A stretch of DNA of 37,974 nucleotides from a virus (Duplodnaviria; Heunggongvirae; Uroviricota; Caudoviricetes). Below the pieces are notes generated by a model. It saw only the letters and a program-made list of their open reading frames with translations. It did no database searches and was not told the DNA's origin. The translations under genes were made by a program, and so were the position numbers. Below, in pieces: positions 5,625-35,354 of this stretch (positions are counted from its first letter, which is position 1; every line of letters starts with the position of its first letter). Location of the stretch: the IMG/VR virus record IMGVR_UViG_2548877011_000015. One strand, written 5' to 3'.

Positions 5625-7996
5625 TGAACTACAGCTATTCCTGGAATGCTGAGAAAAAAGCAATCAATCCTTACGTAGAGACAGAAGAGCAATCTTCAGT
5701 TTCTGCGCTTTCAAACCTGATCGCTCTGTACGCTGCCGATAACGAGCAGGAACAGCTGCGCCGCGAGGCACTGAGTGATCAGGTCTGGGAGCGTTATTTC
5801 TTTAATGAATCCCGTGATCCTGTCCAGCGCGAAATGGAGCAGGATAAGCTCATTAGTCGGGCAAAGCTGGCGCATGAGCAGCAGCGTTTTAATCCAGATA
5901 TGGTCATTCTGGCGGACGTCAATGCCCAGCCTTCCCATATCAGCAAGCCGCTGATGCAACGTATTGAATACTTCAGCAGCCTGGGCAGGCCAAAGGCTTA
6001 TTCCCGCTATTTGCGTGAGACGATTAAGCCATGTCTGGAACGGCTGGAGCATGTACGCGACTGTCAGCTATCCACTTCTTTTCGCTTTATGGCAAGCCAT
6101 GAAGGGCTGGACGGCCTGCTGATCCTGCCTGAAATGAGTCAGGATCAGGTGAAACGCCTGTCCACCCTGGTAGCTGCGCATATGAGCATGTGCCTTGATG
6201 CAGCTTGTGGCGATTTGTATGTCACCGATGACGTTAAGCCAGAAGAAATCCGCAAAACATGGGAAAAGGTGGCAGCGGAAACCCTGCATCTGGATGTCAT
6301 CCCGCCTGCGTTTGAGCAACTCCGCCGGAAAAGAAACCGCCGTAAACCCGTGCCCTATGAACTCATTCCGGGTTCGCTGGCGCGTATGTTGTGCGCTGAC
6401 TGGTGGTACCGGAAATTATGGAAGATGCGTTGCGAATGGCGGGAAGAGCAGTTGCGTGCTGTCTGCCTGGTCAGCAAAAAAGCATCTCCCTATGTCAGCT
6501 ATGAAGCCGTGATGCATAAACGTGAGCAGCGCCGTAAGTCGCTGGAGTTTTTTCGTTCTCATGAACTGGTGAACGAAGACGGCGACACGCTGGACATGGA
6601 GGATGTGGTAAACGCCAGCAGCAGCAACCCTGCGCATCGCCGCAATGAGATGATGGCCTGTGTTAAAGGCCTGGAGCTTATCGCGGAAATGCGCGGTGAC
6701 TGCGCCGTTTTCTACACCATCACCTGTCCGTCACGTTTCCATTCCACGCTAAATAATGGCAGGCCCAACCCAACTTGGACAAATGCGACGGTAAGACAAA
6801 GCAGTGATTATCTGGTCGGCATGTTTGCTGCATTTCGTAAGGCGATGCACAAAGCCGGATTGCGGTGGTATGGCGTGCGGGTGGCTGAGCCGCATCATGA
6901 CGGTACAGTTCACTGGCACCTGTTGTGTTTTATGCGCAAAAAAGACCGCCGCGCCATCACTGCATTACTGCGTAAGTTTGCCATCCGTGAAGACCGCGAG
7001 GAACTGGGCAATAACACTGGGCCGCGCTTTAAGTCTGAGTTGATTAACCCGCGCAAAGGTACGCCAACAAGCTACATCGCGAAATACATCAGTAAGAACA
7101 TTGACGGGCGTGGTCTGGCTGGCGAGATCAGCAAGGAAACGGGGAAATCCCTGCGTGATAATGCTGAATACGTTAATGCCTGGGCGTCTCTGCATCGTGT
7201 TCAGCAATTCCGCTTCTTTGGCATTCCGGGGCGTCAGGCTTACCGTGAACTGCGATTGCTGGCTGGTCAGGCGGCAAGGCAACAGGGGGACAAAAAAGCA
7301 GGTGCGCGGGTACTGGATAACCCGCGCCTTGATGCCATCCTGGCTGCTGCTGATGCTGGTTGTTTTGCTACCTACATCATGAAGCAGGGCGGCGTACTGG
7401 TTCCCCGCAAATATCACCTCATCAGAACCGCTTATGAAATCAACGAAGAGCCGACCGCCTATGGCGATCACGGCATTCGTATTTATGGCATCTGGTCACC
7501 TATTGCAGAGGGCAAGATCTGCACTCATGCCGTGAAGTGGAAAATGGTTCGTAAGGCCGTTGATGTTCAGGAGGCGGCAGCCGACCAGGGCGCTTGCGCC
7601 CCTTGGACTCGTGGCAATAACTGTCCCCTTGCTGAAAATTTGAACCAACAGGAGAAAGATAAATCAGCTGATGGGGACCCCAGAACGGACATTACCAGCA
7701 TGGATGACAAGGAGTTGCACGATTACCTGCACAGTATGAACAAAAAAGAGCGCCGGGAACTGGCTGCAAGGGTACGCCTGGTGAAACCGAAACGGCGTAA
7801 AGACTACAAACAGCAAATTACAGACCATCAGAGACTGCAGCTCGTCTATGAGCTGAAGTCCAGAGGATTTGATGGTAGCGAGAAAGAGGTCGATTTACTC
7901 CTTCGCGGCGGCAGTATTCCGTCAGGAGCAGGCCTGCGTATCTTCTATCGGAACCAGCGTTTGCAAGAAGATGATCAGTGGCGGAACCTGTATTAA
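5624..7996 (+). CDS. A: replication initiation protein A (rolling-circle nickase, P2 gpA-like)
   Basis: 790 aa from ATG at 5624 (TAATG overlap with upstream gene); size and position of P2/186 gene A; contains the paired-tyrosine region YIAKYISK. Confidence 0.85.
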
Positions 7997-8090
7997 TTTC
8001 GCGGGTTAACAATTCGTGCTCTTAATAATACCAGGCATATCAGGCTGATGAACGTAAAAAAACGTTTTACATCAGTAAGATTATTATACA

Positions 8091-8106
8091 CTGTAAATAT
8101 AAACAG
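8091..8106. promoter_or_regulatory. LexA (SOS) box CTGT-N8-ACAG
   Basis: ctgtaaatataaacag is a perfect CTGT-N8-ACAG match with AT-rich spacer, ~45 bp upstream of the tum-like ORF start. Confidence 0.7.
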
Positions 8107-8149
8107 TAGTTATACATACAGTATTGCGTGTGGTGTCATAGGAGGAAAG

Positions 8150-8338
8150 ATGCAGGACTATTTTTTGGAGTCTTTGAAGCTCCAGCGCATTGATTTTTTT
8201 CTTAAGCTTGTAGCGGCTAGTGAGTGTAGTGATGAAGAGAAGGGGCTGGCTCTGCAGTGGGTTTCTGAATTGACTGATGAACTCATGGCAAAAATCAGAA
8301 CCCACGAATACAACCGCTCAATGGATGTCATCAGCTGA
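8150..8338 (+). CDS. Tum-like SOS-inducible protein, N-terminal ORF (62 aa)
   Basis: ATG at 8150 with AGGAGGA SD; directly downstream of the LexA box, in the position of 186 tum. Confidence 0.45.
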   Translation: MQDYFLESLKLQRIDFFLKLVAASECSDEEKGLALQWVSELTDELMAKIRTHEYNRSMDVIS

Positions 8339-8348
8339 GGTGACTTTT

Positions 8349-8582
8349 ATGCGCATTGAAATAATGATCGATAAAGAGCAGAAGATTAGCCAGTCTACCC
8401 TGGACGCCCTTGAATCCGAGCTTTACCGCAATCTGCGCCCCCTGTATCCCAAAACGGTAATTCGTATCCGTAAAGGTAGCTCTAACGGTGTGGAACTGAC
8501 CGGACTGCAACTGGATGAAGAAAGAAAACAAGTGATGAAAATTATGCAGAAGGTGTGGGAAGACGACAGCTGGCTGCATTAA
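8349..8582 (+). CDS. DinI-family protein
   Basis: 77 aa MRIEIMIDKEQKISQSTLDALESELYRNLRPLYPKTVIRIRKGSSNGVELTGL...WEDDSWL is collinear with E. coli DinI (MRIEV...); GAGGTG SD upstream. Confidence 0.8.
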   Translation: MRIEIMIDKEQKISQSTLDALESELYRNLRPLYPKTVIRIRKGSSNGVELTGLQLDEERKQVMKIMQKVWEDDSWLH

Positions 8583-8590
8583 GAAACGTT

Positions 8591-8620
8591 GCCCCCAAGA
8601 GGATTTATCCTGTTGGGGGG
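8591..8620 (+). terminator. stem-loop after DinI-like gene (terminator candidate)
   Basis: gcccccaagaggat tt atcctgttggggg imperfect palindrome immediately after the stop, followed by a weak T stretch (agtttggg). Confidence 0.4.
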
Positions 8621-9070
8621 AGTTTGGGCAACGAGTGAAATGAGGTGTAAGGTGGGCGGTCATTTTGATAAGTGATCGTCCACTTTGTGTCAGAACCTGA
8701 TGTTTGTTGTACATTCGGACGAATAGGCGGCGTTGTTTGCTTTAAAAATAAAACAGGAACACTTTGAGAAAGTGAACAGGTGTATTTATTTGTTGCTGAT
8801 GAATGAGAGTAACTCTAATTTGGATAATTAGCTTGATAATAGGTCAGACGAAAATAATATTCCAGCACACTTTTGGTCGCAACAGGCATTAGTTAATTTT
8901 AAGTGATAAATTTTTATCCATAAATTAACACTAGTGTGTCATCTAGCGAAACCGAATCGCTTTAACTCATAACTTGAAGTTGAATCAGTGGGGTAGCAGT
9001 AGGCATGCCGGAACTGATAAACTGTGCAGAAGGCTAAACATTCATTCACTCGTGAGATAGTAGCTAAATT

Positions 9071-9937
9071 ATGCAAAGAATTATTCCTGATAAAAATTGG
9101 TGGGAAAAAGAGCGTATTAATCGTAAAGCATCATCAATATGCCCATATGCTAGTTCATACAGATGTCCTCGATACTATCAGAGTGTAGTTTTGCTCTCAA
9201 GCATCAATGTGATAGCTGGTATGGCAACTAGGAAAGAAAAAGAGTTGGGTGAATTTTGGGAAAGAACCACTTTCTCATCTTTATGTGATGAAGAAGTCCC
9301 TACAGTTACTACAAAAGAATATGGCGGCCTTGCATCAGTTAGTAATTTTTGCCCAGAAATATCATTTAGATATTTACACTACTACGCCGATTATATGTGT
9401 AAATATGTTGATGAGATAGATCAGGACACTGGCAGGCGTATTGCGGAAAAAGATAATTTAGAAAATGATTGGAAATATACATGGATGTCAGTCAATCCTA
9501 AATTTTATTTAGATTGCGATGTTTTTGAAAGTGTCAAAAATTTCAATGAAGAATTGGCTAGTGATTACTTAAAAAGATTGCACCCAAATATCGTTCAGCA
9601 AATAGATAGAATGAATAATTGCTTGGATAATAATGATCCGGCAGGTGCACTGCACGCAGCCTCTAATATTTTAGAAACTATGGCTAAGGAAATCACTCAA
9701 AACCCGAATGTGGCAAATGAGTCATTGGGTGGTTTTTTTAAACAGTTCGAAAAAATGTCAAAATTACCTAAGAATCTTATTGATGCTGTTAAAGATATTT
9801 ATGATTTACGCAACAAATTACCTACTGCTGGACACGGAAGCTTGAACAAGCCTGAATTGACTATGGTAGAAGCTATAACTATTGCGGCAATGACAAAGGC
9901 GATTTTAGAAATTGAATATCGAAGCAAAGCCATCTAA
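9071..9937 (+). CDS. hypothetical protein (288 aa), accessory island; possible Abi-like
   Basis: ATG at 9071; low-GC; N-terminal Cys cluster CPYASSYRCPRYY; C-terminal LRNKLPTAGHGS (R-N...G-H-G) reminiscent of Abi_C/HEPN-type motifs; occupies the P2 tin/old hotspot between the replication module and cos. Confidence 0.5.
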   Translation: MQRIIPDKNWWEKERINRKASSICPYASSYRCPRYYQSVVLLSSINVIAGMATRKEKELGEFWERTTFSSLCDEEVPTVTTKEYGGLASVSNFCPEISFRYLHYYADYMCKYVDEIDQDTGRRIAEKDNLENDWKYTWMSVNPKFYLDCDVFESVKNFNEELASDYLKRLHPNIVQQIDRMNNCLDNNDPAGALHAASNILETMAKEITQNPNVANESLGGFFKQFEKMSKLPKNLIDAVKDIYDLRNKLPTAGHGSLNKPELTMVEAITIAAMTKAILEIEYRSKAI

Positions 9938-10064
9938 CAAACCAAATTATGTGGTTCAAATTCCCGCTACACTTCTGTGTTGCCGCCAGCGTCTACTTAT
10001 CGCTGTGAGTTCAACGGGTGATGATGCGTTAGAGATCTCTGAATCGATTGAAGTCTAAGGTTGT

Positions 10065-10086
10065 CAGGGCTGTAACAGCAGCCCTG
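10065..10086. terminator. perfect 8-bp stem hairpin between convergent genes
   Basis: cagggctg taacag cagccctg between the 3' ends of the 9071..9937 (+) and 10187..10840 (-) genes. Confidence 0.35.
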
Positions 10087-10186
10087 TGTCATGAATGGAT
10101 TGCATATTAATTGACGAAGAACAGACTAATATCATCGATAGCTGTTTTCAAAAATAGACCAATAACAAACTGAGATGTTATCGTAT

Positions 10187-10840
10187 TCATTTCGATGATT
10201 GATCCAGATGTGTATATAACCATTGAAAGAGTTTTCTAATTTTTGTGATAGTATCTTTTAAATAATTTAAGGAGATTATTATATTATTTTCATTGTTTAA
10301 TGAAAGAGTAGGTGTTTTATCAATGATATTTTTTAAGGCTACAGCTGTGCTCATTTTTTTAATGTCTCCATTAGCATGAACTATGCAATTCCTTACTTTG
10401 TTAAACTCTGTCATGAATTGCCACTCTTGTGACAGGCCAAAGTTTATATCCATTAATTTTGTTAAATATCTTTTTGCTTTGTGGATGCCATCACCATTAA
10501 AATCGGTTACTGATATATTGGTGTTTACAATCCTTTGACATATATTGCAATAGTCGTTTAGGTTGTGCTCTAAGCATGAGTATAAAGATACCAAAGCAGA
10601 TTTATTAAAAATATTTGGTTGTATGTTAACTAAGAAATCATATTGCTCTGAATAATAGTCTTCTAAGTAATTAATATAATCGTCAGGAGCATTCTTTTTT
10701 TCATCTTCATATGCTTTTTTTAATTCCGCTAAGTCAACTCTGTTTTGGCCGCCTGCTCCTAGGATATATTTTTCGAAATCATCAATCTGCGCTTCAAGTG
10801 AATATCTTGATAGCTGTGCGAAAAGTTTGTATTTACTCAT
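10187..10840 (-). CDS. hypothetical protein (217 aa) with HEPN-like Rx4H motif
   Basis: ATG at 10838-10840; low-GC; VRNCIVHANG matches the R-x4-H HEPN signature near the C-terminal third; accessory hotspot location. Confidence 0.5.
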   Translation of the reverse strand: MSKYKLFAQLSRYSLEAQIDDFEKYILGAGGQNRVDLAELKKAYEDEKKNAPDDYINYLEDYYSEQYDFLVNIQPNIFNKSALVSLYSCLEHNLNDYCNICQRIVNTNISVTDFNGDGIHKAKRYLTKLMDINFGLSQEWQFMTEFNKVRNCIVHANGDIKKMSTAVALKNIIDKTPTLSLNNENNIIISLNYLKDTITKIRKLFQWLYTHLDQSSK

Positions 10841-11183
10841 CGGTATGCCATTCCTTTTTAATTATAAACCTTTGGATTAAAAGGTGCTGAAAATAGTAAC
10901 TCATTATTTTTGTTTGTAAAGGGGGTATTGTTTTTACTAGATCAAGATAAAACAATGGGAATATCCGCTTTTCGCTCACAGCGGACTTTCATCTTTGTAA
11001 ACCCGTATGATTAGCTTTTCAGCGGTCATTCAGATACGGATTTACGCTTCCCTTGGCTGTGCATGACTATGACGCATGAGATCGCATGATCGTTAGAGGA
11101 TCGTTTTTGCTGAGGCCAGCCAGAACTGGCGTGCTTTTGCTTATGTCGTGCAGGTGCATGAAAACCACTACATAAAGCGGGCA

Positions 11184-11202
11184 GGCGTGGCGGGGATACG
11201 AT
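11184..11202. other. cos-like cohesive-end site
   Basis: ggcgtggcggggatacgat followed by tgcgcgct, compared with the P2 left end GGCGAGGCGGGGAAAGCAC TGCGCGCT as recalled from memory; sits in a GC-normal segment (about 10960-11220) between two AT-rich islands. Confidence 0.5.
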
Positions 11203-11270
11203 TGCGCGCTAGGTATAAGTGTGTAAAATAATTCCAAAATAAATCATCCTAATGAAGTGAGAGGGTAATA

Positions 11271-12920
11271 ATGTTAGTCAAGAAAAATAAAAATTATAGT
11301 TTATATTTTTTAATTACAAATAATCAACAGATATCTGATTCTGGTAATTATATAAAAATAGTCCCATCAAGAAGCGATTGGAATGATTTTGGATATTTGA
11401 GTAGAGTCGAAATATCTATTTTTAATAAAAAAGAGTGTAAGGATATAATTTCACTGAATGGTTATATTGGTTTTTTGAATTCAGAGGAGGAACGAAATGG
11501 AAAAGCAGAACTGATAAGGCGAGTGAAGAAAAAGGAAGAATCTAATTTAAAGGATGAGGGGTTTAATGATTATTTTGTCATGCTTCAGGATATGAATAAT
11601 TATCGAAGACTAGTAAGATTTTTTGGGGTGAATGAATCCAAATATATATTAAATTTCATTAATGATGTTGTTTCTAAGAAAAGTGACGCTAGTGCAGAGA
11701 ATTTGAGGAAAAAAGCAATCTCTTCTGATATCTTTAATAAATCTTTCATTAGAGAGTCTGAGTCGTATTTTACTTTCAAAAATGCAGGAACAGTTCTTTC
11801 CGGTATTCAATATGAGGAGTTGGGTAATTTATCACAGCACATCAAGATTAGCTATTCGAATAAAGTTAATGAAGAAGATGTATCTTATGTTTTTAATTTT
11901 GATCACGAGCATGATTTACCAAAAAGAATTTCCATAATTATAGGCGAGAATGGTGTAGGAAAAAGCCAAACGCTTAGAGAAATCGCATTGGCTGCGATTA
12001 AAGGAAAGGATAATTTGGTGGCTGTAGTTGATTCTAACGGTGTGAGCATTGAAGAACGAATTCAAATTAGTAGGCTCATTGCTTTTTCTCCAACAAATGA
12101 AAGTAAGTGTTCATTTCCAACCGATAAAAGAATAAAATCATTGATATGGTACAAAAGATTGACTTTAAATCGTGAATCAAAATCCAAATTAAACTTGAAT
12201 GATTTAATAGTGCAACTAGCGAGGAGTAACGACGCTATCGGCTATAATCAAAGGTGGAATATATTTGTTGATGCACTGAGTGTTCTAAATAGTAACAACG
12301 ATTTAGTAATCAAATGTAGCGGTGAAAATTCACCATTTGTTAAATTAAATGAGCTTAATTCTCGAGGCGAAGAATCCAGACTATCATTATATTCTGAAAT
12401 TATTCTCTCTGGCGAGCCTTTGAGGCTTGTTGAAAATAAATGTTACCCTTTGAGTAGTGGGGAAATATCGTTTATTAAGTTTTGTGTACAAGTCTGTTTG
12501 TATATTGAGAATGGGACTCTTCTATTAATAGATGAGCCAGAAACACATCTCCATCCTTCATTTATTAATAAATTTATGGCATTGCTTGATAATTTATTAG
12601 AAAAGACAGGCTCTTCAGCTATCATAGCAACGCATTCGGTTTATCTTGTTCGGGAGGTTTTTAAGGAGCAAGTGACAATACTCAGAAGACGAGATGATGG
12701 GGTAATTGTTAGCGAAAAACCGAGATTGAGTACTTTTGGGGCGAATATAGGAAATATCTCATATTTTGTTTTCGGTGAGAGTGAACCAACTCAAATTTTA
12801 AATAAAGTAAAAAATAATATAATTGCAAAGAATATGTCTTGGGATGATGTTGAATCTAAATATAGCGAGGACTTATCACTTAATGTATTAACTGCGTTGA
12901 GAAATGAAATAGGTAATTGA
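11271..12920 (+). CDS. ABC/SMC-like ATPase with N-terminal extension (Septu PtuA-like)
   Basis: 549 aa; Walker A GENGVGKS (~aa 225), Walker B LLLIDEPETHLHP (~aa 417), H-loop ATHS; ~215-aa N-terminal domain of unknown type; GAGGGT SD; low-GC; stop is 1 nt before the next gene's start. Confidence 0.7.
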   Translation: MLVKKNKNYSLYFLITNNQQISDSGNYIKIVPSRSDWNDFGYLSRVEISIFNKKECKDIISLNGYIGFLNSEEERNGKAELIRRVKKKEESNLKDEGFNDYFVMLQDMNNYRRLVRFFGVNESKYILNFINDVVSKKSDASAENLRKKAISSDIFNKSFIRESESYFTFKNAGTVLSGIQYEELGNLSQHIKISYSNKVNEEDVSYVFNFDHEHDLPKRISIIIGENGVGKSQTLREIALAAIKGKDNLVAVVDSNGVSIEERIQISRLIAFSPTNESKCSFPTDKRIKSLIWYKRLTLNRESKSKLNLNDLIVQLARSNDAIGYNQRWNIFVDALSVLNSNNDLVIKCSGENSPFVKLNELNSRGEESRLSLYSEIILSGEPLRLVENKCYPLSSGEISFIKFCVQVCLYIENGTLLLIDEPETHLHPSFINKFMALLDNLLEKTGSSAIIATHSVYLVREVFKEQVTILRRRDDGVIVSEKPRLSTFGANIGNISYFVFGESEPTQILNKVKNNIIAKNMSWDDVESKYSEDLSLNVLTALRNEIGN

Positions 12921-12921
12921 A

Positions 12922-13785
12922 ATGAATAAATTAAAAAGACCTGTTTTTAAAGATTATTCTGCATTTAAAAAACTATCTGCAAATAAGAGATTAAAACATC
13001 ATTCTGTTCTGAATGGACAGGATACATTTATACTTAATGCATATAGATCGTACATAAAGAATAAAGGATATCTTAATGTCAATTCTTGTGGCGTATTGAG
13101 TAACAATATTGCTGAAGCTTTGAAATATTATTATAACAATCCCGCAAAGTGTTTATCTATAATTGATGATATAAGAGCAGCTAATTCTAACTCTCTATGT
13201 CCAATGTGTGGTTCAATGCATAGCGGGACTTTGGATCATGTTTTACCCAAGGAAAACTATCCAGAATTTTCTTTATTCACTAAGAATTTGGTTCCTGCTT
13301 GCAAATGTAATACTTTCAAAAGTACTACTATAGCTAATTCTGCAGGCCATCGGATGCTGCATCCATATTTTGATAATATATTAAAACAAAGATTAATATG
13401 TGCTAATTTTTCTAAATTAGGGCGAACACCTACAATTGATGTAAAAATCATAATTGACCCAATGTCACCAGAATATAACAATGTTAAGTATCATCTTGAT
13501 AATGTTGTTATCAAGAATAATATTAAGGGGTATTTGTCTGAACAATGGGAGTCGTTTTACTTATATCCTGAGCTTGTTATTAGAGGACTGAATAAGAGTC
13601 TTTCTACTTATAGCGATGTATATGAGTTGTTGACTCGCGAGTTGTTGCTGTTGGATGAAAAACATAAAGGTAAAAATAATTGGAATTCGGTTTTTGTAGC
13701 TGGGTTAATTCGACCTGATGTGATTAGGTGGATACTCTGTGAATTACATTTAGGTAACAGAAGTCCAGACGGTCGTCTCATATGA
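12922..13785 (+). CDS. HNH endonuclease (Septu PtuB-like)
   Basis: 287 aa; HNH core CPMCGSMHSGTLDHVLPKENYPEF...NLVPACKCN; tightly coupled to the upstream ATPase. Confidence 0.7.
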   Translation: MNKLKRPVFKDYSAFKKLSANKRLKHHSVLNGQDTFILNAYRSYIKNKGYLNVNSCGVLSNNIAEALKYYYNNPAKCLSIIDDIRAANSNSLCPMCGSMHSGTLDHVLPKENYPEFSLFTKNLVPACKCNTFKSTTIANSAGHRMLHPYFDNILKQRLICANFSKLGRTPTIDVKIIIDPMSPEYNNVKYHLDNVVIKNNIKGYLSEQWESFYLYPELVIRGLNKSLSTYSDVYELLTRELLLLDEKHKGKNNWNSVFVAGLIRPDVIRWILCELHLGNRSPDGRLI

Positions 13786-13795
13786 TTTTTTGCAT

Positions 13796-13821
13796 CTTCA
13801 GCGTGTATCTGCACGCTGAAG
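13796..13821. terminator. 10-bp perfect stem hairpin between PtuB-like gene and Q
   Basis: cttcagcgtg tatctg cacgctgaag, preceded by a T6 run on the + strand; separates convergent transcription units. Confidence 0.4.
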
Positions 13822-13892
13822 AAATTCATAAAAACTGCTGGCTATTAATAACTTTTTTTAGTTGTGTTAAAGAACCTCATTTAGTTATTACG

Positions 13893-19490: not shown

Positions 19491-19955
19491 ATGAAGTTTG
19501 TTGCGCCAGAACAGGCACCGGAACAGGCGGAAATCATCAGAAATACGCCGTTCTGGCCTGATGTGGACCTGTCGGAGTTTCGCAGTGTCATGCGCACTGA
19601 CGGCACGGTGACGCAGCCGCGTTTAAAGCAGGTTGCGCTGTCGGCAATTTCGGAGGTCAACGCAGAGCTGTATGAGTTTCGCAGACGCCAGCAGATGCTG
19701 GGGTATGCCTCGCTGGCAGAAGTCCCGGCGGAACAACTGGACGGCAAAAGCGAGCGCATTCAGCACTATTTCAACGCGGTTTACTGCTGGGCACGCGCCA
19801 TGCTCAACGAACGTTACCAGGACTATGACGCCACGGCATCCGGTGCGAAGCGGGGCGAGGAACTGGCGGAAGCAAGCGGTGATTTATGGCGTGACGCCCG
19901 CTGGGCCATCAGCCGGGTGCAGGATGCGCCGCACTGCACAGTGGAGCTTATCTGA
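19491..19955 (+). CDS. L: head completion/stabilisation protein (P2 gpL-like)
   Basis: ATG at 19491 (MKFVAPEQ...) with AGGAG SD; the track ORF from 19428 begins with a GTG upstream. Confidence 0.8.
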   Translation: MKFVAPEQAPEQAEIIRNTPFWPDVDLSEFRSVMRTDGTVTQPRLKQVALSAISEVNAELYEFRRRQQMLGYASLAEVPAEQLDGKSERIQHYFNAVYCWARAMLNERYQDYDATASGAKRGEELAEASGDLWRDARWAISRVQDAPHCTVELI

Positions 19956-20158
19956 TGAAAGTGCGTGCGCATCAATATGACACGGTGGACGCACTTTGCT
20001 GGCGTCATTACGGGCGCACGCAGGGTGTCACGGAGCAGGTACTGAAGGCAAATCCGGGGCTTGCCGAATATGGCCCCTTTTTACCTCACGGGCTGCAGGT
20101 GGAGCTGCCGGACATTCCGACCACCACCACCGTGCAGACCGTCCAGCTATGGGACTGA
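19955..20158 (+). CDS. X: tail protein X (P2 gpX-like)
   Basis: 67 aa; MKVRAHQYDTVDALCWRHYGRTQGVTEQVLKANPGLAEYGPFLPHGLQVELPDI is collinear with P2 gpX. Confidence 0.85.
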   Translation: MKVRAHQYDTVDALCWRHYGRTQGVTEQVLKANPGLAEYGPFLPHGLQVELPDIPTTTTVQTVQLWD

Positions 20159-20161
20159 ATT

Positions 20162-20377
20162 ATGACGCTTGAGCGAATCAGCGCCTTTATCACGTACTGC
20201 ATCGCCGTTGTGCTGGCCTGGCTGGGCGATTTGTCCATCAAGGATGCCTCAACGCTGGGCGGCCTGATGATTGGTGTGCTGATGCTGGCTATCAACTGGT
20301 ACTACAAACACAAAGCCTACCAGCTTCTGCGCGACGGGCAGATCTCGCGGGAGGACTATGAATCCATCAATCGTTAA
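20162..20377 (+). CDS. holin
   Basis: 71 aa with two hydrophobic transmembrane segments and charged C-terminus, directly upstream of the lysozyme gene. Confidence 0.65.
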   Translation: MTLERISAFITYCIAVVLAWLGDLSIKDASTLGGLMIGVLMLAINWYYKHKAYQLLRDGQISREDYESINR

Positions 20378-20870
20378 ACGCTGCCTTGTCGGGGGCGTGC
20401 TGGCTATTGCTGCCACGCTGCCGGGTTTTCAGCAGCTTCACACCTCCGTGGAGGGGCTGAAACTGATTGCCGATTACGAAGGCTGTCGTCTGCAGCCGTA
20501 TCAGTGCAGCGCGGGTGTCTGGACCGACGGCATTGGTAATACATCGGGCGTCATTCCCGGCAAAACAATCACGGAACGACAGGCAGCAGAAGGGCTGATC
20601 TCCAACGTGCTGCGTGTGGAGCGGGCACTGGAAAGGTGTGTGAAGCAACAGCCACCACAGAAGGTGTATGACGCTACGGTGTCGTTTGCCTTCAACGTGG
20701 GGACGGGCAATGCCTGTAGTTCCACGCTGGTGAAATTGCTCAATCAGCGGCGCTGGGCGGATGCGTGCCGACAGTTGCCGCGCTGGGTTTATGTAAAAGG
20801 TGTGTTTAATCAGGGGCTGGATAACCGCCGTGCGCGGGAGATGGCTTGGTGTTTACAGGGAGCAAACTGA
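20358..20870 (+). CDS. endolysin, lysozyme type, with N-terminal SAR-like hydrophobic segment
   Basis: 170 aa; EGLKLIADYEGCRLQPYQCSAGVWTDGIGNT carries the E...D...T catalytic spacing of T4/P21-type lysozymes; N-terminal VGGVLAIAATLPGF is a weakly hydrophobic signal-anchor-like segment. Confidence 0.8.
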   Translation: MNPSIVKRCLVGGVLAIAATLPGFQQLHTSVEGLKLIADYEGCRLQPYQCSAGVWTDGIGNTSGVIPGKTITERQAAEGLISNVLRVERALERCVKQQPPQKVYDATVSFAFNVGTGNACSSTLVKLLNQRRWADACRQLPRWVYVKGVFNQGLDNRRAREMAWCLQGAN

Positions 20871-20871
20871 A

Positions 20872-21249
20872 ATGAAAAAGAAATTAATCAGCGGACTGTT
20901 TCTGATGTTATGGATGGCGCTGTTAGTCGCAGCAATGGTGTATCCGCAGGGGATTTTTCCGGTACTGGCAGTGTCCGGCGTTTGGGTAGCCTGTTTGCTG
21001 ACATGGGCGGTAATTCCTGTAGCACTGGCTGCGTTAATTAAGAATGGCCCGCTCTGGCAGGAGTTAAGGGCATCTTTGCTGAAGACAATTACCCGAAAAG
21101 AAAACGTATTTATCACCTGGGTGATGCGATTGCTGATTGTTGTAAGTCTCGCTTGGACGGGGTGGGCTATTACCCTGGTCTTTTATCTACTGACCGTTAT
21201 TGCCTTCTGGATCACCCGTAATCAGATGGCGCAACAGGTAGCAGCATGA
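20872..21249 (+). CDS. lysA: LysA-like membrane protein (lysis timing)
   Basis: 125 aa with several transmembrane segments, P2 lysA position. Confidence 0.6.
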   Translation: MKKKLISGLFLMLWMALLVAAMVYPQGIFPVLAVSGVWVACLLTWAVIPVALAALIKNGPLWQELRASLLKTITRKENVFITWVMRLLIVVSLAWTGWAITLVFYLLTVIAFWITRNQMAQQVAA

Positions 21250-21674
21250 ACCGGTTGCTGCTGGTTGTGCTGGCGTTATTACTGGCGGCGCTGGGCTGGC
21301 AGACGTGGCGGCTGGCTGATGCCAGCCAGACCATTAGCACGCAGGCAGACGAGCTGCAGAGCAAAAGCCAGGCACTGGCAAAGAGCAACAGCCAGCTTAT
21401 CAGCCTGTCCATTCTGACTGAAACCAATAACCGGGAGCAGGCGCGGCTCTATGCCGAAGCAGAACAGACCAGCGCGCTGCTGAGACAACGACAACACCGG
21501 ATCGAGGAACTGAAACGTGAGAACGAGGATTTACGCCGCTGGGCTGATACTCCTTTGCCTGCTGACATTATCCGGCTGCGGGAACGTCCGACGCTCACCG
21601 GAGGTGCAGCTTACCGTCAGTGGTTGTCCGCGAGTGACGCCGTGTCGGCTGGATCAGGCAGCGCCGCGCACTAA
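21246..21674 (+). CDS. lysB: i-spanin (LysB / Rz-like)
   Basis: 142 aa; N-terminal TM anchor MNRLLLVVLALLLAALGW then coiled-coil region; P2 lysB position. Confidence 0.75.
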   Translation: MNRLLLVVLALLLAALGWQTWRLADASQTISTQADELQSKSQALAKSNSQLISLSILTETNNREQARLYAEAEQTSALLRQRQHRIEELKRENEDLRRWADTPLPADIIRLRERPTLTGGAAYRQWLSASDAVSAGSGSAAH

Positions 21675-21807
21675 CGGTGATCTGAACGCGTTGCTGGATG
21701 AAACGGAGGCCGCCTGGGCGGTCTGTGCAGACAAAGTGGACATGATTATTGCGTGTCAGGAGCGAAACAGTGAACAAACCACAATCCCTGCGCCACGCCC
21801 TAAATAA
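21517..21807 (+). CDS. lysC: o-spanin lipoprotein (LysC / Rz1-like), embedded out of frame in lysB
   Basis: GTG start at 21517; signal peptide with lipobox LSGC; overlaps the lysB 3' end in a different frame and runs into R. Confidence 0.65.
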   Translation: MRTRIYAAGLILLCLLTLSGCGNVRRSPEVQLTVSGCPRVTPCRLDQAAPRTNGDLNALLDETEAAWAVCADKVDMIIACQERNSEQTTIPAPRPK

Positions 21808-22201
21808 AGCGGTGCCTTATGTCCGCAATAACCCGGAAAAACTGCATCTGTTTGTGGATAACGGTTCGCTGGTTGCCACGGGGGCCAGCTCCATGTCGTG
21901 GGAGTACCGTTACACCCTGAACGCGGTGATTGAGGATTTCAGCGGCGACCAGAATCTGTTGATGGCCCCGGTTTTACTGTGGCTGAGGGATAACCAGCCC
22001 GTTGCCATCAATAACCCGGCGTTACGGGAAAAACAATTCACCTTTGAGGTGGATATTCTGCGCAACGATGTCTGTGATATCAGCTTGAACCTGCAACTGA
22101 CGGAACGTGTGCTGGTCAGCACTGACGGCAGTGTGTCGAGCGTTGAAGCTGTAGCGGAACCCGATGAACCTGAAGAAATGTGGACGGTGAAACGTGGCTG
22201 A
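21770..22201 (+). CDS. R: tail completion protein R (P2 gpR-like)
   Basis: GTG at 21770 with AGGAG 8 nt upstream; track ORF 21749..22201; P2 R position and size. Confidence 0.7.
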   Translation: MNKPQSLRHALNKAVPYVRNNPEKLHLFVDNGSLVATGASSMSWEYRYTLNAVIEDFSGDQNLLMAPVLLWLRDNQPVAINNPALREKQFTFEVDILRNDVCDISLNLQLTERVLVSTDGSVSSVEAVAEPDEPEEMWTVKRG

Positions 22202-22646
22202 ACTGCAGAAAGTGGACGACTGGCTGAGTGCCTTGCTGGCGAATCTGGAACCAGCCGCCAGAAGCCGCATGATGCGCCAGCTGGCGCAGGAACTGCGCCG
22301 GACACAGCAGCAGAATATCAGGATGCAGCGCAACCCTGACGGCAGCAGCTATGAACCGCGACGGGTAACAGCACGAAGTAAAAAAGGGCGCATCAAACGT
22401 CAGATGTTTGCAAAGCTGCGCACCACAAAATACCTGAAAACCGCCGCCAGCGCGGATTCTGCCAGCGTACAGTTTGAAGGTAAGGTGCAGCGCATTGCCC
22501 GCGTTCATCATTACGGCCTGCGCGATCGCGTCAGTCCAAAGGGGGGAGTCATTAAGTATCCATCCCGAAAATTGCTGGGTTTAAATGAACATACTGAAAA
22601 TGAAGTAAGAGATTTACTTTTAAAGTATTTTTTGATGAAAAATTAG
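22194..22646 (+). CDS. S: tail completion protein S (P2 gpS-like)
   Basis: 150 aa, GTG start overlapping R stop; C-terminal YPSRKLLG motif as I recall it from gpS-family proteins. Confidence 0.7.
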   Translation: MAELQKVDDWLSALLANLEPAARSRMMRQLAQELRRTQQQNIRMQRNPDGSSYEPRRVTARSKKGRIKRQMFAKLRTTKYLKTAASADSASVQFEGKVQRIARVHHYGLRDRVSPKGGVIKYPSRKLLGLNEHTENEVRDLLLKYFLMKN

Positions 22647-22651
22647 AATGT

Positions 22652-23182
22652 TTACGCACTTAATAAACTTAAATAACTTTTTATGCTTTGGCAAAAAGGG
22701 AAAAGGTCTATTTTAATTTTCCAGTTTTTTTTGTTTTGAACCCCAGAAGCAATAATAGAACCATCCCAATATTTTATTCCATTTTTGCCGGTCTTTTTTG
22801 TTAACTCAAAACTTAATGCGTGAATAATTTTATTGCAGCATTCGCGTATAGAACCTTTAACATGACCATCTATAACAAAAAGTATATTTTCATGTTCTTC
22901 AAATGCTTCTTTCTCAGGTGAGTAATCTGGGTTCCACTCATGTTCACTAGTGTCTTGGAGAATTCGTAGTTTTGTACAAAGGCTAATAAGATTGTTGCTA
23001 ATGGTATATTCCAACCATCCGTTGTACGATAACTCCTCCATTTCAAATTCAGTTACTATAGAATCATCATATACTTTCTGTGTGGAATATATACGCTGTA
23101 AATAAAATTCAGATGAACAGCATAATTGCTCAATTATTCTTGCGTGTTCTTCTATAGCGTAATAATCAATTGGATGGCTCAT
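22652..23182 (-). CDS. hypothetical protein (176 aa), moron at the P2 orf30 site
   Basis: Low-GC gene on the opposite strand, inserted between tail genes S and V; ATG at 23180-23182 with AAAGG SD (track ORF extends to 23221). Confidence 0.55.
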   Translation of the reverse strand: MSHPIDYYAIEEHARIIEQLCCSSEFYLQRIYSTQKVYDDSIVTEFEMEELSYNGWLEYTISNNLISLCTKLRILQDTSEHEWNPDYSPEKEAFEEHENILFVIDGHVKGSIRECCNKIIHALSFELTKKTGKNGIKYWDGSIIASGVQNKKNWKIKIDLFPFCQSIKSYLSLLSA

Positions 23183-23277
23183 TCTTTTACCTTTCTTCGA
23201 TTGGAATTGTATTTGTGTCATTTACCACACAAGGACGTATTGATGCCATAGATTCAAGGTCCGTGCAACCTAACCCT

Positions 23278-23856
23278 ATGAACGCACAACTAACCGAAAT
23301 CATGCGCCTTATCACCAACCTGATCCGCACTGGGGTAGTCACCGAAGTGGATCGGGAGAACTGGCTTTGCCGGGTGAAAACGGGCGAGCTTGAAACCAAC
23401 TGGATCAGCTGGCTGACGCTGCGTGCCGGAAATGCCCGGACATGGTGGCGACCATCGGAAGGTGAGCAGGTGGTGCTGCTGAGTCTGGGCGGCAATCTGG
23501 AGACTGCCTTTGCGCTGCCCGCTGTCTATTCGAATCAGTTCGCACCACCGTCGACGTCGGCGGACGCCTGCGTGACAGAACATCCTGACGGTGGCTGGTT
23601 TGAATACGAACCCGCCACCGGGCGCTGGTATGTCAGGGGCATCAAATCAATGGTCATTGAGGCCGCTGACAACATCACCCTGAAAACCAATGAGTTTGTA
23701 CTGGAGGCTGACCGCACGCGCATTAACAGCGAAGTGGTGATCAATGGTGGCGTTACCCAGGGCGGCGGAGCGATGAGTTCTAACGGGATCGTGGTTGATG
23801 CGCATCAGCATACTGGCGTCCTGAAAGGCGGCGACACAACCGGAGGCCCGGTATGA
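23278..23856 (+). CDS. V: baseplate spike/assembly protein V (P2 gpV-like)
   Basis: 192 aa from ATG at 23278; P2 V position; Gly-rich C-terminus. Confidence 0.8.
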   Translation: MNAQLTEIMRLITNLIRTGVVTEVDRENWLCRVKTGELETNWISWLTLRAGNARTWWRPSEGEQVVLLSLGGNLETAFALPAVYSNQFAPPSTSADACVTEHPDGGWFEYEPATGRWYVRGIKSMVIEAADNITLKTNEFVLEADRTRINSEVVINGGVTQGGGAMSSNGIVVDAHQHTGVLKGGDTTGGPV

Positions 23857-24212
23857 CGCTTTATAGCGGGATGAACAATACCAGCGGTAAAGCCATTACT
23901 GATATTGACCATCTGCGCCAGTCGGTGCGGGACATTCTGCTGACGCCGCAGGGTAGTCGCATTGCCCGTCGGGAATATGGTTCCCTGCTGTCGGCACTGA
24001 TTGATCAGCCACAAAATCCGGCATTACGCCTGCAGGTTATGTCGGCTGTGTATGTGGCACTGAGTCGCTGGGAGCCACGGCTGGCGCTCGATTCCATCAC
24101 TATTAACAGCAATTTTGACGGTTCAATGGTGGTGGAGCTGAGCGGGCGGCGTAATAACGGTGTGCCTGTGTCCCTTTCAGTATCAACAGGAGCAGAGAAT
24201 GGCAGTGATTGA
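23853..24212 (+). CDS. W: baseplate protein W (gp25-like)
   Basis: 119 aa, ATGA overlap with V; P2 gpW size. Confidence 0.8.
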   Translation: MTLYSGMNNTSGKAITDIDHLRQSVRDILLTPQGSRIARREYGSLLSALIDQPQNPALRLQVMSAVYVALSRWEPRLALDSITINSNFDGSMVVELSGRRNNGVPVSLSVSTGAENGSD

Positions 24213-25107: not shown

Positions 25108-25705
25108 TCTGCTGCCACCGGGTTCAACACCACTGGAGCGCCGACTGGCGCAAACCTGCAGCGGGATTTCTGATCTGCAGGTGCCGCTTCGTGACTTGTG
25201 GAATCCGGCAACCTGTCCGGTCAGTTTCCTGCCTTATCTCGCCTGGGCGTTCTCTGTAGATCGCTGGGACGAGGGCTGGACAGAAAGCGTCAAGCGCCAG
25301 GTGGTGAAGGATGCTTTTTATATTCATCAGCATAAAGGGACCACCAGTGCCGTGCGGCGGGTGGTGGAGCCGTTCGGCTTTCTGATCCGCATTATTGAGT
25401 GGTGGCAGACCGGAGAGGCACCGGGCACGTTTCGCCTGGATATCGGCGTGCAGGACCAGGGTATCACTGAAGATACCTATCTGGAACTTGAGCGACTGAT
25501 AAGCGATGCCAAACCATGTAGCCGCCACATGATCGGCATATCCATCAATCTGCAGACCAGCGGCCCGCATTGGGTGGGAGCCGCCAGCTATCTTGGCGAA
25601 GAAATCACGATCTATCCGTATATCAACGAAACGATTATTTCCGGTGGCACCGCGCATGAAGGCGGGGCGGTCCATGTTATTGACACAATGAGAGTGAATC
25701 CATGA
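25100..25705 (+). CDS. I: baseplate/tail protein I
   Basis: 201 aa, overlaps J stop; P2 gpI position. Confidence 0.75.
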   Translation: MNSLLPPGSTPLERRLAQTCSGISDLQVPLRDLWNPATCPVSFLPYLAWAFSVDRWDEGWTESVKRQVVKDAFYIHQHKGTTSAVRRVVEPFGFLIRIIEWWQTGEAPGTFRLDIGVQDQGITEDTYLELERLISDAKPCSRHMIGISINLQTSGPHWVGAASYLGEEITIYPYINETIISGGTAHEGGAVHVIDTMRVNP

Positions 25706-27453
25706 GCACAAAATTTTATACCCTGCTGACGGATATTGGCGCGGCGAAACTTGCCAGCGCCACCGCGCTCGGTGTGCCGCTAAAAATTACCCATATGGCG
25801 GTGGGCGATGGCGGCGGAGTATTGCCAACGCCGGACGCAAAGCAGACGGCACTGGTAAATGAGAAACGCCGGGCTGCGCTGAATATGCTTTATATCGACC
25901 CGCAGAACAGCAGCCAGATTATTGCTGAACAGGTGATCCCTGAAAACGAGGGCGGTTGGTGGATACGTGAAGTGGGCTTGTTTGATGAGTCCGGGGCATT
26001 GATTGCCGTGGGTAACTGCCCGGAAAGCTATAAGCCGCAACTGGCTGAAGGCAGTGGGCGTACCCAGACCGTGCGCATGGTGCTGATTACCAGCAGTACG
26101 GACAATATCATCCTGAAAATCGACCCTGCTGTAGTGCTGGCAACCCGCAAGTATGTGGATGACAAAATATCAGAGCACGAACAGTCACGACGTCACCCGG
26201 ACGCCTCGCTGACCGCAAAAGGTTTTACTCAGTTAAGCAGTGCGACCAACAGTGAATCCGAAATACTGGCCGCAACACCGAAGGCTGTGAAGGCTGCATA
26301 TGATCTTGCAGCAGGTAAAGCATCCGCCAGTCACACACACCCGTGGAATCAGATAACGGATGTGCCTGCAGCTTCACTGACGGTAAAAGGCACCGTGCAA
26401 CTCAGCAGCGCCACTAACAGCACGTCAGAAATGCAGGCTGCCACACCAAAGGCAGTGAAGGCGGCATATGACCTTGCAGCAGGTAAGGCACCTGTCAGTC
26501 ACACGCACCCGTGGAGCCAGATAACAGATGTGCCTGCAGCTTCACTGACGGTAAAAGGCACCGTGCAACTCAGCAGCGCTACTAACAGCACGTCAGAAAC
26601 GCAGGCTGCCACACCAAAAGCCGTGAAGGCTGTATATGACCTTGCCAATGGAAAACAACCTGCCGACGCCACACTGACCGCACTGGCAGGCCTTGCCACT
26701 GCGGCAGACAAACTTCCGTATTTTACGGGGAATGATACAGCCAGCCTGACAACCCTGACTAACGTTGGACGGAATATTCTGGATAAAGCAAGCACACAGG
26801 CGGTTATTCAATATCTTGGTCTGAGCGATGCAAGTGGATACGTTGGACGCTGGCTGAATACCCGGGTTTTCACCTCATCAGGTACGTACACCACGACGCC
26901 AGGAACAAAACGGATTAGGGTCACAATAACGGGCGGCGGTGGCGGAGGGGGCGGCTGCAAGGCTATATCCAATAATGAAACGTTTTTCGGTGCTGGCGGC
27001 GGGGCAGGTGGGACAGTAATCACCACGCTGATCCTGACGAAGGATAGTTATCCTGTCACTATCGGCGCAGGTGGGGCCGGCGGCGTTAGTGCGACGAACG
27101 GCCTCAAGGGCGGTGATAGCTCGTTCGGATCGGTAATAGCCCCTGGTGGTGAAGGTGGTGGAAAATCAGGAGTCACAAACACGAACGGTGGTAACGGCGG
27201 TGTGCCAAGTACTGGCGGTATCAACATCATTGGTGGAAATGGAGGCGACGGTCAGTCCGGAAATATCGGCGTCAGCGGTGAAGGCGGAACATCGCACTGG
27301 GGTGGCGGTGGACGCGCAGGCGCTGGCGGTGGTGTTAGTGGTAAGGCATATGGTTCAGGTGGCGGTGGCGCATACGATGCCGGTTATAGCGGAACCAGTA
27401 TGACAGGCGGGAAAGGTGCCGCTGGGATTTGTATTATCGAGGAGTTTGCATAA
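25702..27453 (+). CDS. H: tail fiber protein H with internal tandem repeats and Gly-rich C-terminal domain
   Basis: 583 aa; conserved P2-type N-terminus; three ~56-aa tail-fibre repeats (SLTVKGTVQLSSATNS...AATPKAVKAAYDLA...HTHPW); C-terminal ~170 aa is 35-40% Gly. Confidence 0.85.
   Translation: MSTKFYTLLTDIGAAKLASATALGVPLKITHMAVGDGGGVLPTPDAKQTALVNEKRRAALNMLYIDPQNSSQIIAEQVIPENEGGWWIREVGLFDESGALIAVGNCPESYKPQLAEGSGRTQTVRMVLITSSTDNIILKIDPAVVLATRKYVDDKISEHEQSRRHPDASLTAKGFTQLSSATNSESEILAATPKAVKAAYDLAAGKASASHTHPWNQITDVPAASLTVKGTVQLSSATNSTSEMQAATPKAVKAAYDLAAGKAPVSHTHPWSQITDVPAASLTVKGTVQLSSATNSTSETQAATPKAVKAVYDLANGKQPADATLTALAGLATAADKLPYFTGNDTASLTTLTNVGRNILDKASTQAVIQYLGLSDASGYVGRWLNTRVFTSSGTYTTTPGTKRIRVTITGGGGGGGGCKAISNNETFFGAGGGAGGTVITTLILTKDSYPVTIGAGGAGGVSATNGLKGGDSSFGSVIAPGGEGGGKSGVTNTNGGNGGVPSTGGINIIGGNGGDGQSGNIGVSGEGGTSHWGGGGRAGAGGGVSGKAYGSGGGGAYDAGYSGTSMTGGKGAAGICIIEEFA
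26203..26658 (+). repeat. 168-bp tandem repeat (about 2.7 copies) inside the tail fiber gene
   Basis: Copies start near 26203, 26371 and 26539; copies 2 and 3 are nearly identical at the DNA level. Confidence 0.8.
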
Positions 27454-34900: not shown

Positions 34901-35119
34901 ATGATGATTTGCCCACTGTGTGGAAGTGCCGCCCATACTCGCAGCAGTTTTCAGGTATCTTCATTGACCAAAGAGCGTTACAACCAGTGCCAGAACATTA
35001 ACTGCAGCCATACTTTTGTTACCCATGAAACTTTTGTTCGTTCGATTGCAACGCCAAAAGAGTCAAATCCGGTTCAGCCGCATCCAATGAAATCAGGACA
35101 GGTGGCGCTCTCTCTTTGA
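34901..35119 (+). CDS. ogr: Ogr/Delta-family zinc-finger late gene activator
   Basis: 72 aa from ATG at 34901; MMICPLCGSAAHTRSS...KERYNQCQNINCSHTF carries the CxxC...CxxxxC finger and resembles P2 Ogr as I recall it. Confidence 0.85.
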   Translation: MMICPLCGSAAHTRSSFQVSSLTKERYNQCQNINCSHTFVTHETFVRSIATPKESNPVQPHPMKSGQVALSL

Positions 35120-35142: not shown

Positions 35143-35198
35143 CGTTAAAAAACAGTGCTTCTAACATCATGATTTTAAACAGCTTAAATTTCAGGCAA

Positions 35199-35242
35199 CA
35201 AAAAACCCATCAACCTTGAACCGAAATGGCGGGGTTGATGGG
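35199..35242 (-). terminator. candidate rho-independent terminator for ybjL
   Basis: Stem cccatcaacc / ggttgatggg (35206-35215 and 35233-35242) with an A7 run on the + strand, giving a U tract after the stem on the minus strand; loop is long (17 nt). Confidence 0.4.
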
Positions 35243-35354
35243 CTCCACAAAATGGGGACATCAAAGAAAAGCAGTGGCACTAATTAAGACTGATGCCCTG
35301 CGGAAAAGTTCTGCGGTTGTGCAAAAAAATTTCATTTTCAGGGCAACTTCAGTT

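Follow-up and report, generated by a model that had tools for sequence, protein, structure and literature searches.

We have analyzed a group of lysis genes on the forward strand of a 37,974-nt stretch of viral DNA, which is referred to here as the window. Two genes, lysB and lysC, predicted to encode the inner-membrane and outer-membrane components of a spanin (i-spanin and o-spanin), are preceded by genes for a holin, an endolysin and a LysA-like protein and are followed by the tail completion gene R (Table 1). The gene order, X - holin - endolysin - lysA-like - lysB/lysC - R - S, is identical to that of P2, and the spanin pair is located at the distal end of the holin-endolysin lysis cassette. 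R is the downstream border of this cassette and is not itself a lysis gene. The initial annotation had placed the spanin pair in a compact lysis cassette, and the genes for the holin, the SAR-type endolysin and the LysA-like protein do in fact lie directly upstream of it.

Table 1. Lysis genes, the neighbouring gene R and the proposed ribosome binding site of lysC, in window positions.
Feature	Position	Strand	Basis
Holin, 71 aa, HP1 holin family	20162..20377	+	Pfam PF16080 36.7 bits, cutoff 28.8
SAR-type GH24 endolysin, P1 Lyz-like, 170 aa	20358..20870	+	Pfam Phage_lysozyme PF00959 E 4.5e-40
LysA-position membrane protein, 125 aa	20872..21249	+	phrog_162 E 9.8e-43, the PHROG of P2 LysA
lysB, i-spanin, 142 aa	21246..21674	+	ATG 21246 to TAA 21674
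Shine-Dalgarno GAGGA for lysC, within lysB	21504..21508	+	Read from sequence; 8 nt upstream of GTG
lysC, o-spanin, 96-aa precursor	21517..21807	+	GTG 21517 to TAA 21807
R, tail completion (terminator) gene	21770..22201	+	Pfam P2_Phage_GpR E 2.7e-46, aligned from residue 1

The lysC gene is read in the +1 frame of lysB and shares a stretch of 158 nt with it. It reaches 133 nt past the end of lysB, the last 38 nt of which are inside R, so that lysB, lysC and R are each read in a different one of the three forward frames. For the 95 nt that separate lysB from R, lysC is the only coding assignment. The length of the lysC/R overlap follows from the start of R at GTG 21770, since the GpR alignment begins with the first residue of R and the PGAP annotation uses the identical start. 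The initial annotation had described an o-spanin gene that begins inside lysB in a different frame and runs into R, and the ORF coordinates agree with this exactly. It had also described lysC as both embedded in lysB and extending beyond it; the extension is confirmed, while "embedded" is not the appropriate word, as the term used for spanin genes arranged in this way is "overlapped" (PMC6139136, PMC3556154).

The window is a segment of an E. coli chromosome that carries an apparently complete P2/186/Fels-2-like prophage, which spans from an integrase gene at 1-1053 to ogr; rybB and ybjL lie further out. The best-matching genome, NZ_CP148579.1, aligns to the window with zero offset and essentially 100% identity up to about 26 kb (the first single mismatch is at 1852), and identity is 100% over the segment 20100-23900, which holds the lysis cassette. 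That segment was matched in about a fifth of the complete E. coli genomes searched (1062 of 5426). Downstream of about 26.3 kb the window and NZ_CP148579.1 differ by a 168-nt indel. The RybB match sits 78 nt past ogr; an apparent location of RybB inside the ogr coding sequence was an artefact of transferring PGAP coordinates across this indel and was discarded. PGAP names both lysB and lysC in the genome that is identical over the region, and calls the pair Rz-like and Rz1-like. A scan of positions 19900-23400 for promoters and terminators gave no signal above the shuffled expectation, and therefore no internal promoter is proposed for lysC or R.

Proteins of the lysis cassette

LysB matches the TIGR03495 model (phage_LysB) with 174.8 bits against a cutoff of 92.75 (E 9.8e-52), over residues 3-136 of 142, and it also matches phrog_89, an Rz-like spanin family, with an E value of 8e-46. 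The protein has a single hydrophobic segment, which is N-terminal (about residues 4-20, KD 2.28). In a single-sequence AF2 model a continuous helix extends from residue 2 to 101 with pLDDT of 89-98, followed by shorter helices of low confidence. Hydropathy and the model together indicate one TMD, at the N-terminus, and a periplasmic domain that is mostly alpha-helical, and LysB is expected to be a type II inner-membrane anchor with a helical periplasmic rod.

LysC begins with the n-region MRTR and the h-region IYAAGLILLCLLT, followed by the lipobox LSGC at residues 18-21 (21568-21579) and a Gly at +2. Both the GTG start and the LSGC lipobox had been proposed in the initial annotation and can be read directly from the sequence. 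The signal peptide comprises residues 1-20, and Cys21 is the predicted acylated N-terminus of a mature form predicted to have 76 aa. Lipoproteins that lack Asp at +2 are sorted to the outer membrane by the Lol system. All elements of the lipoprotein signal expected of an o-spanin (n-region, h-region, lipobox and no Asp at +2) are present in LysC, and LSGC conforms to the lipobox consensus [LVI][ASTVI][GAS]C (PMC6139136). The mature protein has seven prolines and four more conserved cysteines (37, 43, 70 and 80). These four cysteines are invariant out to P2, whereas LysB contains no cysteine.

LysC matches the NCBIfam model NF038368 (P2_Rz1) with 124.5 bits (cutoff 27, E 1.5e-36) and the Pfam model PF23793 (LysC) with 56.8 bits (cutoff 27, E 2.1e-15), as well as the Rz-like spanin families phrog_952 and phrog_456. 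The LysB and LysC models are both above their curated cutoffs, in agreement with the spanin pair that had been called from the letters of the sequence. The AF2 model of LysC, which is of low confidence (mean pLDDT 60.9), has a signal helix, a disordered, Pro-containing section at residues 22-44 and a helix at 56-85. This model fits the outer-membrane spanin of P2 as it has been described, with a Pro-containing linker and a C-terminal helix (PMC3556154).

The gene structure, the frames, the signal peptide with its lipobox, the family membership, the conservation and the signs of dual-frame constraint were all obtained in this analysis. Nothing contradicts an overlapped spanin reading of lysB/lysC, and we consider it highly probable that the two genes in this interval encode a two-component spanin in the overlapped architecture and belong to a P2/Fels-2-like (Peduoviridae) prophage of E. 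coli that appears to be complete.

Upstream of the pair, the predicted holin is a small protein, as had been suggested, with two hydrophobic segments and class II topology by hydropathy. Its HP1 holin family assignment is accompanied by a match to phrog_20 (E 1.9e-26), a weaker match to P21 holin S and the PGAP name "HP1 family phage holin". The best PDB matches of the endolysin are 1XJT/1XJU (E 3.5e-26), with the block EGCRxxPYxCxAGVWTDGIGNT aligned. In the phage records of relatives 1XJT/1XJU is P1 Lyz, and the homologues are named P1 Lyz-like or SAR endolysin. The triad E41-8X-C50-5X-T56 has the correct spacing and is aligned with that of 1XJT; both the definition of this triad and the disulfide caging of the catalytic Cys have been described (PMC3556154). 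Residues 9-24 of the endolysin, CLVGGVLAIAATLPGF, form a weakly hydrophobic, Gly/Ala-rich segment that includes Cys9 and is preceded by K7 and R8. Its KD value of 1.65-1.82 is below that of the spanin and LysA TMDs (2.1-2.4), and G+A+S+T make up 44% of it. At the level of sequence, then, the N-terminus has the character of a signal-anchor-release segment, and the earlier designation of this GH24 protein as a SAR-type endolysin holds at that level. Cys9, Cys43 and Cys50 are present in the endolysin; the latter two align with the two cysteines of the P1 Lyz block, while the N-terminal segment is unaligned. In the work of Xu et al. 2005, P1 Lyz reportedly uses Cys13, Cys44 and Cys51.

The protein at the LysA position has about 4 hydrophobic segments and belongs to the NCBIfam DNZ54_00345 family. 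It is missing from LF82-type relatives. When this protein and the holin were compared directly with P2 LysA and Y by BLASTP, the local matches were only marginal, and that to LysA was weak (E 0.002); the relationship to LysA therefore rests on the common PHROG 162. The protein is a candidate antiholin or lysis-timing factor. From its family matches the holin is judged to be of another family than P2 Y.

A plausible course of events during lysis can be proposed for these proteins. By analogy with known i-spanins, LysB would insert in the inner membrane, and lysC would be translated in the +1 frame from its own GAGGA/GTG start within lysB. To judge from its families, the LysC precursor would be exported by Sec, acylated at Cys21 and cleaved by signal peptidase II. 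Since it has Gly instead of Asp at +2, the Lol system would then sort it to the outer membrane. As in lambda and P2, the two proteins may join via their periplasmic domains to give a complex that passes through the meshwork of the murein and bridges the periplasm (PMC6139136). The two-TMD holin would depolarise the membrane, upon which the P1 Lyz-like SAR endolysin would be released and activated. With the murein degraded, the spanin complexes would be free to collapse and to fuse the inner and outer membranes, so that the virions could be released. For LysB and LysC, we infer acylation, sorting, complex formation and membrane fusion by analogy with these systems.

A different role follows from the original P2 annotation, in which LysB and LysC would be mainly regulators of lysis timing and not spanins that disrupt the outer membrane. 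The P2 record keeps the notes "nonessential; affects timing of lysis", and P2 lysC missense alleles, as described in PMC3556154 with reference to Markov et al. 2004, bring about early lysis with compromised murein, which was taken to suggest an interplay with the holin. However, apparent non-essentiality in shaken cultures is now put down to shear, which destroys the spherical cells (PMC6139136), and the P2 pair is among the spanins that have been tested experimentally (PMC6139136). The topology and family membership of LysB and LysC also fit a spanin, and we regard timing as the main role of this pair as very unlikely. The timing and spanin views are not mutually exclusive.

Start codon and reading frame of lysC

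The lysC frame is closed by a TGA at 21511-21513, two codons before GTG 21517, and this GTG is the sole ATG, GTG or TTG codon upstream of the lipobox in that frame. The same cGAGGAnCTgAAAC-GTG context is also found in KP12, 4LV2017, Fels-2, ST512phi13.6 and Pseudomonas phage Dobby. RefSeq, by contrast, begins the gene at CTG 21559, giving a product of 82 aa. If this were the true start, lysC would be a genuine gene whose product lacks a proper signal peptide and is not an outer-membrane lipoprotein. In the best-matching genome PGAP does give lysC as 21559-21807, and in LF82 it starts the gene at the equivalent position. However, CTG is a rare initiator, and the resulting protein would open with MLTLSGC, with no n-region and an h-region of 5 residues, so that the n-region and most of the h-region are lost. 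The GTG codon has a GAGGA Shine-Dalgarno sequence 8 nt upstream and the in-frame stop just before it, and in relatives the homologous codon is ATG or GTG. Moreover, residues 1-14 of the longer product align with the N-terminus of P2 LysC (M1, R2, T3, I5, A7, A8, G9, L12 and C14 are invariant), and the match to the NF038368 profile starts at residue 5. The CTG start appears to us most improbable, and GTG 21517 is, from these sequence comparisons, the better supported and indeed the best-supported start of lysC.

The frame of lysC is conserved among related phages. A tblastn search matched it in 276 phage records. The hosts of these phages include Burkholderia, Klebsiella, Yersinia, Escherichia, Salmonella and Pseudomonas, among others. 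Ten loci were compared: the window, KP12, 4LV2017, P2, Fels-2, ST512phi13.6, Pseudomonas phage Dobby, Midge, Burkholderia phage Menos and Yersinia phage YenM_31.17. In all ten, lysC is in the +1 frame, begins inside lysB and stops at or inside R. The lipobox Cys is likewise at the homologous position in 10 of 10 loci, from six host genera and down to 41% identity. Nucleotide divergence from Fels-2 is 12.0% in the lysB/lysC overlap and 21.0% in the part of lysB that is not shared; the corresponding values for ST512phi13.6 are 14.6% and 28.0%. Divergence that is about halved in the overlap is as expected for dual-frame constraint, of which we take these values to be signs.

The length of the lysC ORF is by itself no evidence for a gene, as long spurious ORFs abound in this GC-rich region. 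The lipobox pattern was also dropped as a stand-alone test. With a PS51257-like (PROSITE) rule there were 17 matching start/ORF combinations in the window, mostly spurious antisense ORFs, compared with 3.5 +/- 2.4 in shuffled sequence; the case for lysC therefore rests on homology and conservation. The notion that the +1-frame ORF is not a gene, and that both the open frame and its lipobox-like motif arose by chance in GC-rich coding DNA, might draw on the 55% GC of the region with its spurious ORFs, on the clearly spurious lipobox matches and on the absence of lysC from the annotation of several deposited phage genomes, but it is effectively refuted by scores far above cutoff for the curated LysC models, by the retention of frame, lipobox and four cysteines down to 41% identity across six host genera, by the 95 nt between lysB and R for which lysC is the one coding assignment, by the lowered divergence in the overlap and by the genetic definition of lysC in P2 (Markov et al. 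2004, as cited in PMC3556154).

The deposited records of related phages treat lysC unevenly. The gene is omitted from those of 4LV2017, ST512phi13.6, Dobby and YenM_31.17. It is annotated as a 57-aa fragment in KP12 and as a 52-aa C-terminal fragment only in Midge, and its start is placed 2 codons downstream in the record of Fels-2. A bias against overlapped o-spanin genes, together with misplaced starts, is a known problem (Kongari et al. 2018, PMC6139136). Use of GTG 21517 as the start restores a complete lipoprotein precursor, and the practical value of the present result is in annotation. As a discovery the pair matters little: it is ordinary and already known, since P2 lysB/lysC is the textbook overlapped spanin architecture.

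Comparison with known systems

The P2 lysB/lysC genes are the prototype of the overlapped two-component spanin, in which lysC is in the +1 frame and extends beyond lysB (PMC3556154; PMC6139136, Fig. 1b). In the P2 record the genes are laid out in the same way (lysB 7922-8347, lysC 8202-8492, R from 8455). P2 LysC has the same length of 96 aa, the lysC/R overlap is again 38 nt, and the proteins fall in the same PHROGs (89 for LysB, 456/952 for LysC) and the same NCBIfam and Pfam families. The two LysC proteins align from Met1 with 41% identity, and M1, R2 and T3, the G-C of the lipobox and the four periplasmic cysteines are invariant; identity between the LysB proteins is 31%. The P2 genes differ in that lysC starts with ATG instead of GTG and overlaps lysB by 146 nt instead of 158 nt, and P2 LysB has two cysteines near its C-terminus where the LysB described here has none. 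The holin and endolysin of P2 belong to phrog_175 and phrog_90, those of the window to phrog_20 and phrog_7. This exchange of holin and endolysin relative to P2, with lysA, lysB and lysC retained, is ordinary module mosaicism. We also considered the "attenuator" hairpin of P2, which lies within lysC. The homologous segment of the window folds differently (z = -1.45), and the P2 hairpin has a z of -1.30; as it is neither significant nor conserved, it was dropped.

The closest relatives of the pair are found in Fels-2 and in two Klebsiella phages. The LysB and LysC proteins of 4LV2017 and KP12 are 96-97% identical to those of the window, and in Salmonella phage Fels-2 the corresponding proteins, STM2714 (P2 LysB-like) and STM2713 (P2 LysC-like), are about 80% identical. 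All three phages share with the window the lengths of the two proteins, the 158-nt overlap, the GTG start with its Shine-Dalgarno context and the LSGC lipobox, and they differ in the spanin pair by point substitutions only. They also have an HP1-type holin and a P1 Lyz-like endolysin. These sequence relationships assign the LysB/LysC pair to the Fels-2 branch. The endolysin of the window and P1 Lyz (1XJT/1XJU) have in common the block and the triad described above (PMC3556154), and the N-terminal hydrophobic segment of the endolysin contains a Cys. The N-terminal segments themselves are not alignable, and the alignment begins at residue 19.

The Rz/Rz1 pair of lambda is similar in its general plan, with a type II inner-membrane protein that has a helical periplasmic domain and, encoded by the same DNA in the +1 frame, a small lipoprotein of the outer membrane (PMC6139136). 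The lambda Rz1 gene, however, is wholly embedded in Rz, unlike lysC with its extension past lysB. The lambda Rz/Rz1 families are absent among the Pfam, PHROG and NCBIfam matches of the spanin pair. LysB and LysC are predicted to work like Rz and Rz1 but are not members of the lambda Rz/Rz1 family.

The distribution of cysteines also differs between these systems. The lambda complex depends on intermolecular disulfides at C99 and C152 of Rz and at C29 of Rz1 (PMC6139136), whereas in the window the i-spanin is free of Cys and the o-spanin contains four. LysB is unlike P2 LysB in this respect, and therefore the details of covalent dimerisation may differ from those of lambda and P2. It is conceivable, although we put it forward tentatively and as somewhat doubtful, that in the Fels-2-type subfamily any disulfide-based covalent linkage is entirely on the o-spanin, perhaps with LysC also acting in the timing of lysis, at which the early-lysis alleles of P2 lysC hint. 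If true, this would be a modest mechanistic variant within a known family. The T4 pair PseT.3/PseT.2 is alike in having an i-spanin without periplasmic Cys and an o-spanin with both Cys and a predicted C-terminal helix (PMC6139136). The T4 genes are separated, however, their family is unrelated, and PseT.2 has two cysteines as opposed to the four of LysC. A spanin pair with no Cys in the i-spanin and four in the o-spanin falls within the spread of combinations listed by Kongari et al. (PMC6139136).

Spanin gene annotation and cysteines

The RefSeq/PGAP annotation starts lysC, the o-spanin gene, at CTG 21559, which gives a protein of 82 aa and shortens the signal peptide by 14 residues. GTG 21517 is the better supported start: it is preceded by the SD motif GAGGA and, two codons before it, by an in-frame TGA, and Met1 of P2 LysC falls at the aligned position. 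Annotation of this gene is uneven among related phages, with no lysC in the records of 4LV2017, ST512phi13.6, Dobby and YenM_31.17, and only a fragment in those of KP12 (57 aa) and Midge (52 aa). LysC has four periplasmic cysteines, invariant as far as P2. LysB, the i-spanin, has none, whereas P2 LysB has two; any disulfide linkage of the spanins would therefore have to be confined to the o-spanin side.

Accessory genes, tail fibre and integration site

The features found elsewhere in the window are listed with those of the lysis region in the table. The AAA ATPase and HNH endonuclease genes of the low-GC island match the PADLOC models for PDC-M01A/B, a candidate defence system, and for Septu PtuA. 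The opposite-strand gene between S and V is also low in GC (0.32, versus 0.50 across the window) and occupies the position of orf30 in P2. Its PHROG is of unknown function, and it had no match in Pfam, NCBIfam or PADLOC; PGAP gives it a later start, at 23182. The gene is present in LF82 and absent from the Klebsiella phages KP12 and 4LV2017.

Features of the window
Feature	Coordinates	Strand	Details
Cargo island	8600-13890		GC 0.34; between DinI-like gene and portal gene
Gene of unknown kind, island	9071-9937
Gene of unknown kind, island	10187-10840	-	weak RTasHEPN match (1e-5)
AAA ATPase gene, island	11271-12920
HNH endonuclease gene, island	12922-13785
Holin-endolysin module	20162-20870		HP1-type two-TMD holin; P1 Lyz-like SAR lysozyme
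LysA-position gene	20872-21249		four TMDs; phrog_162, shared with P2 LysA
Opposite-strand gene, S/V interval	22652-23221	-	phrog_18838 (E 3.7e-133)
Tail-fibre gene	25702-27453
Tandem repeat in tail-fibre gene	26260-26645		168-nt unit, 2.3 copies, 89% match
ogr	34901-35119
RybB sRNA, full-length	35197-35275	-	Rfam RF00110, 105 bits

The otherwise near-identical NZ_CP148579.1 carries one extra unit of the tail-fibre repeat (639 aa versus 583 aa here), and PGAP coordinates transferred from it are therefore off by +168 past ~26.3 kb. RybB follows ogr at a distance of 78 nt. Records of related phages and prophages terminate, or have attR annotated, at ~35191-35210, and the prophage thus appears to be integrated at the rybB 3' end.

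Mosaic composition of the lysis cassette

The presence of the LysA-position gene varies among close relatives. In LF82-type E. coli prophages, where the sequences flanking the gap are ~96% identical to the window, and in Yersinia phage YenM_31.17, the endolysin gene is followed directly by lysB. Many E. coli matches cover only 89% of a 20100-23900 query, which is consistent with absence of this gene. P2 shares lysA, lysB and lysC with the window, but its Y and K belong to families different from those of the holin and endolysin found here. The cassette is a case of module mosaicism, holin-endolysin versus lysA/lysB/lysC.
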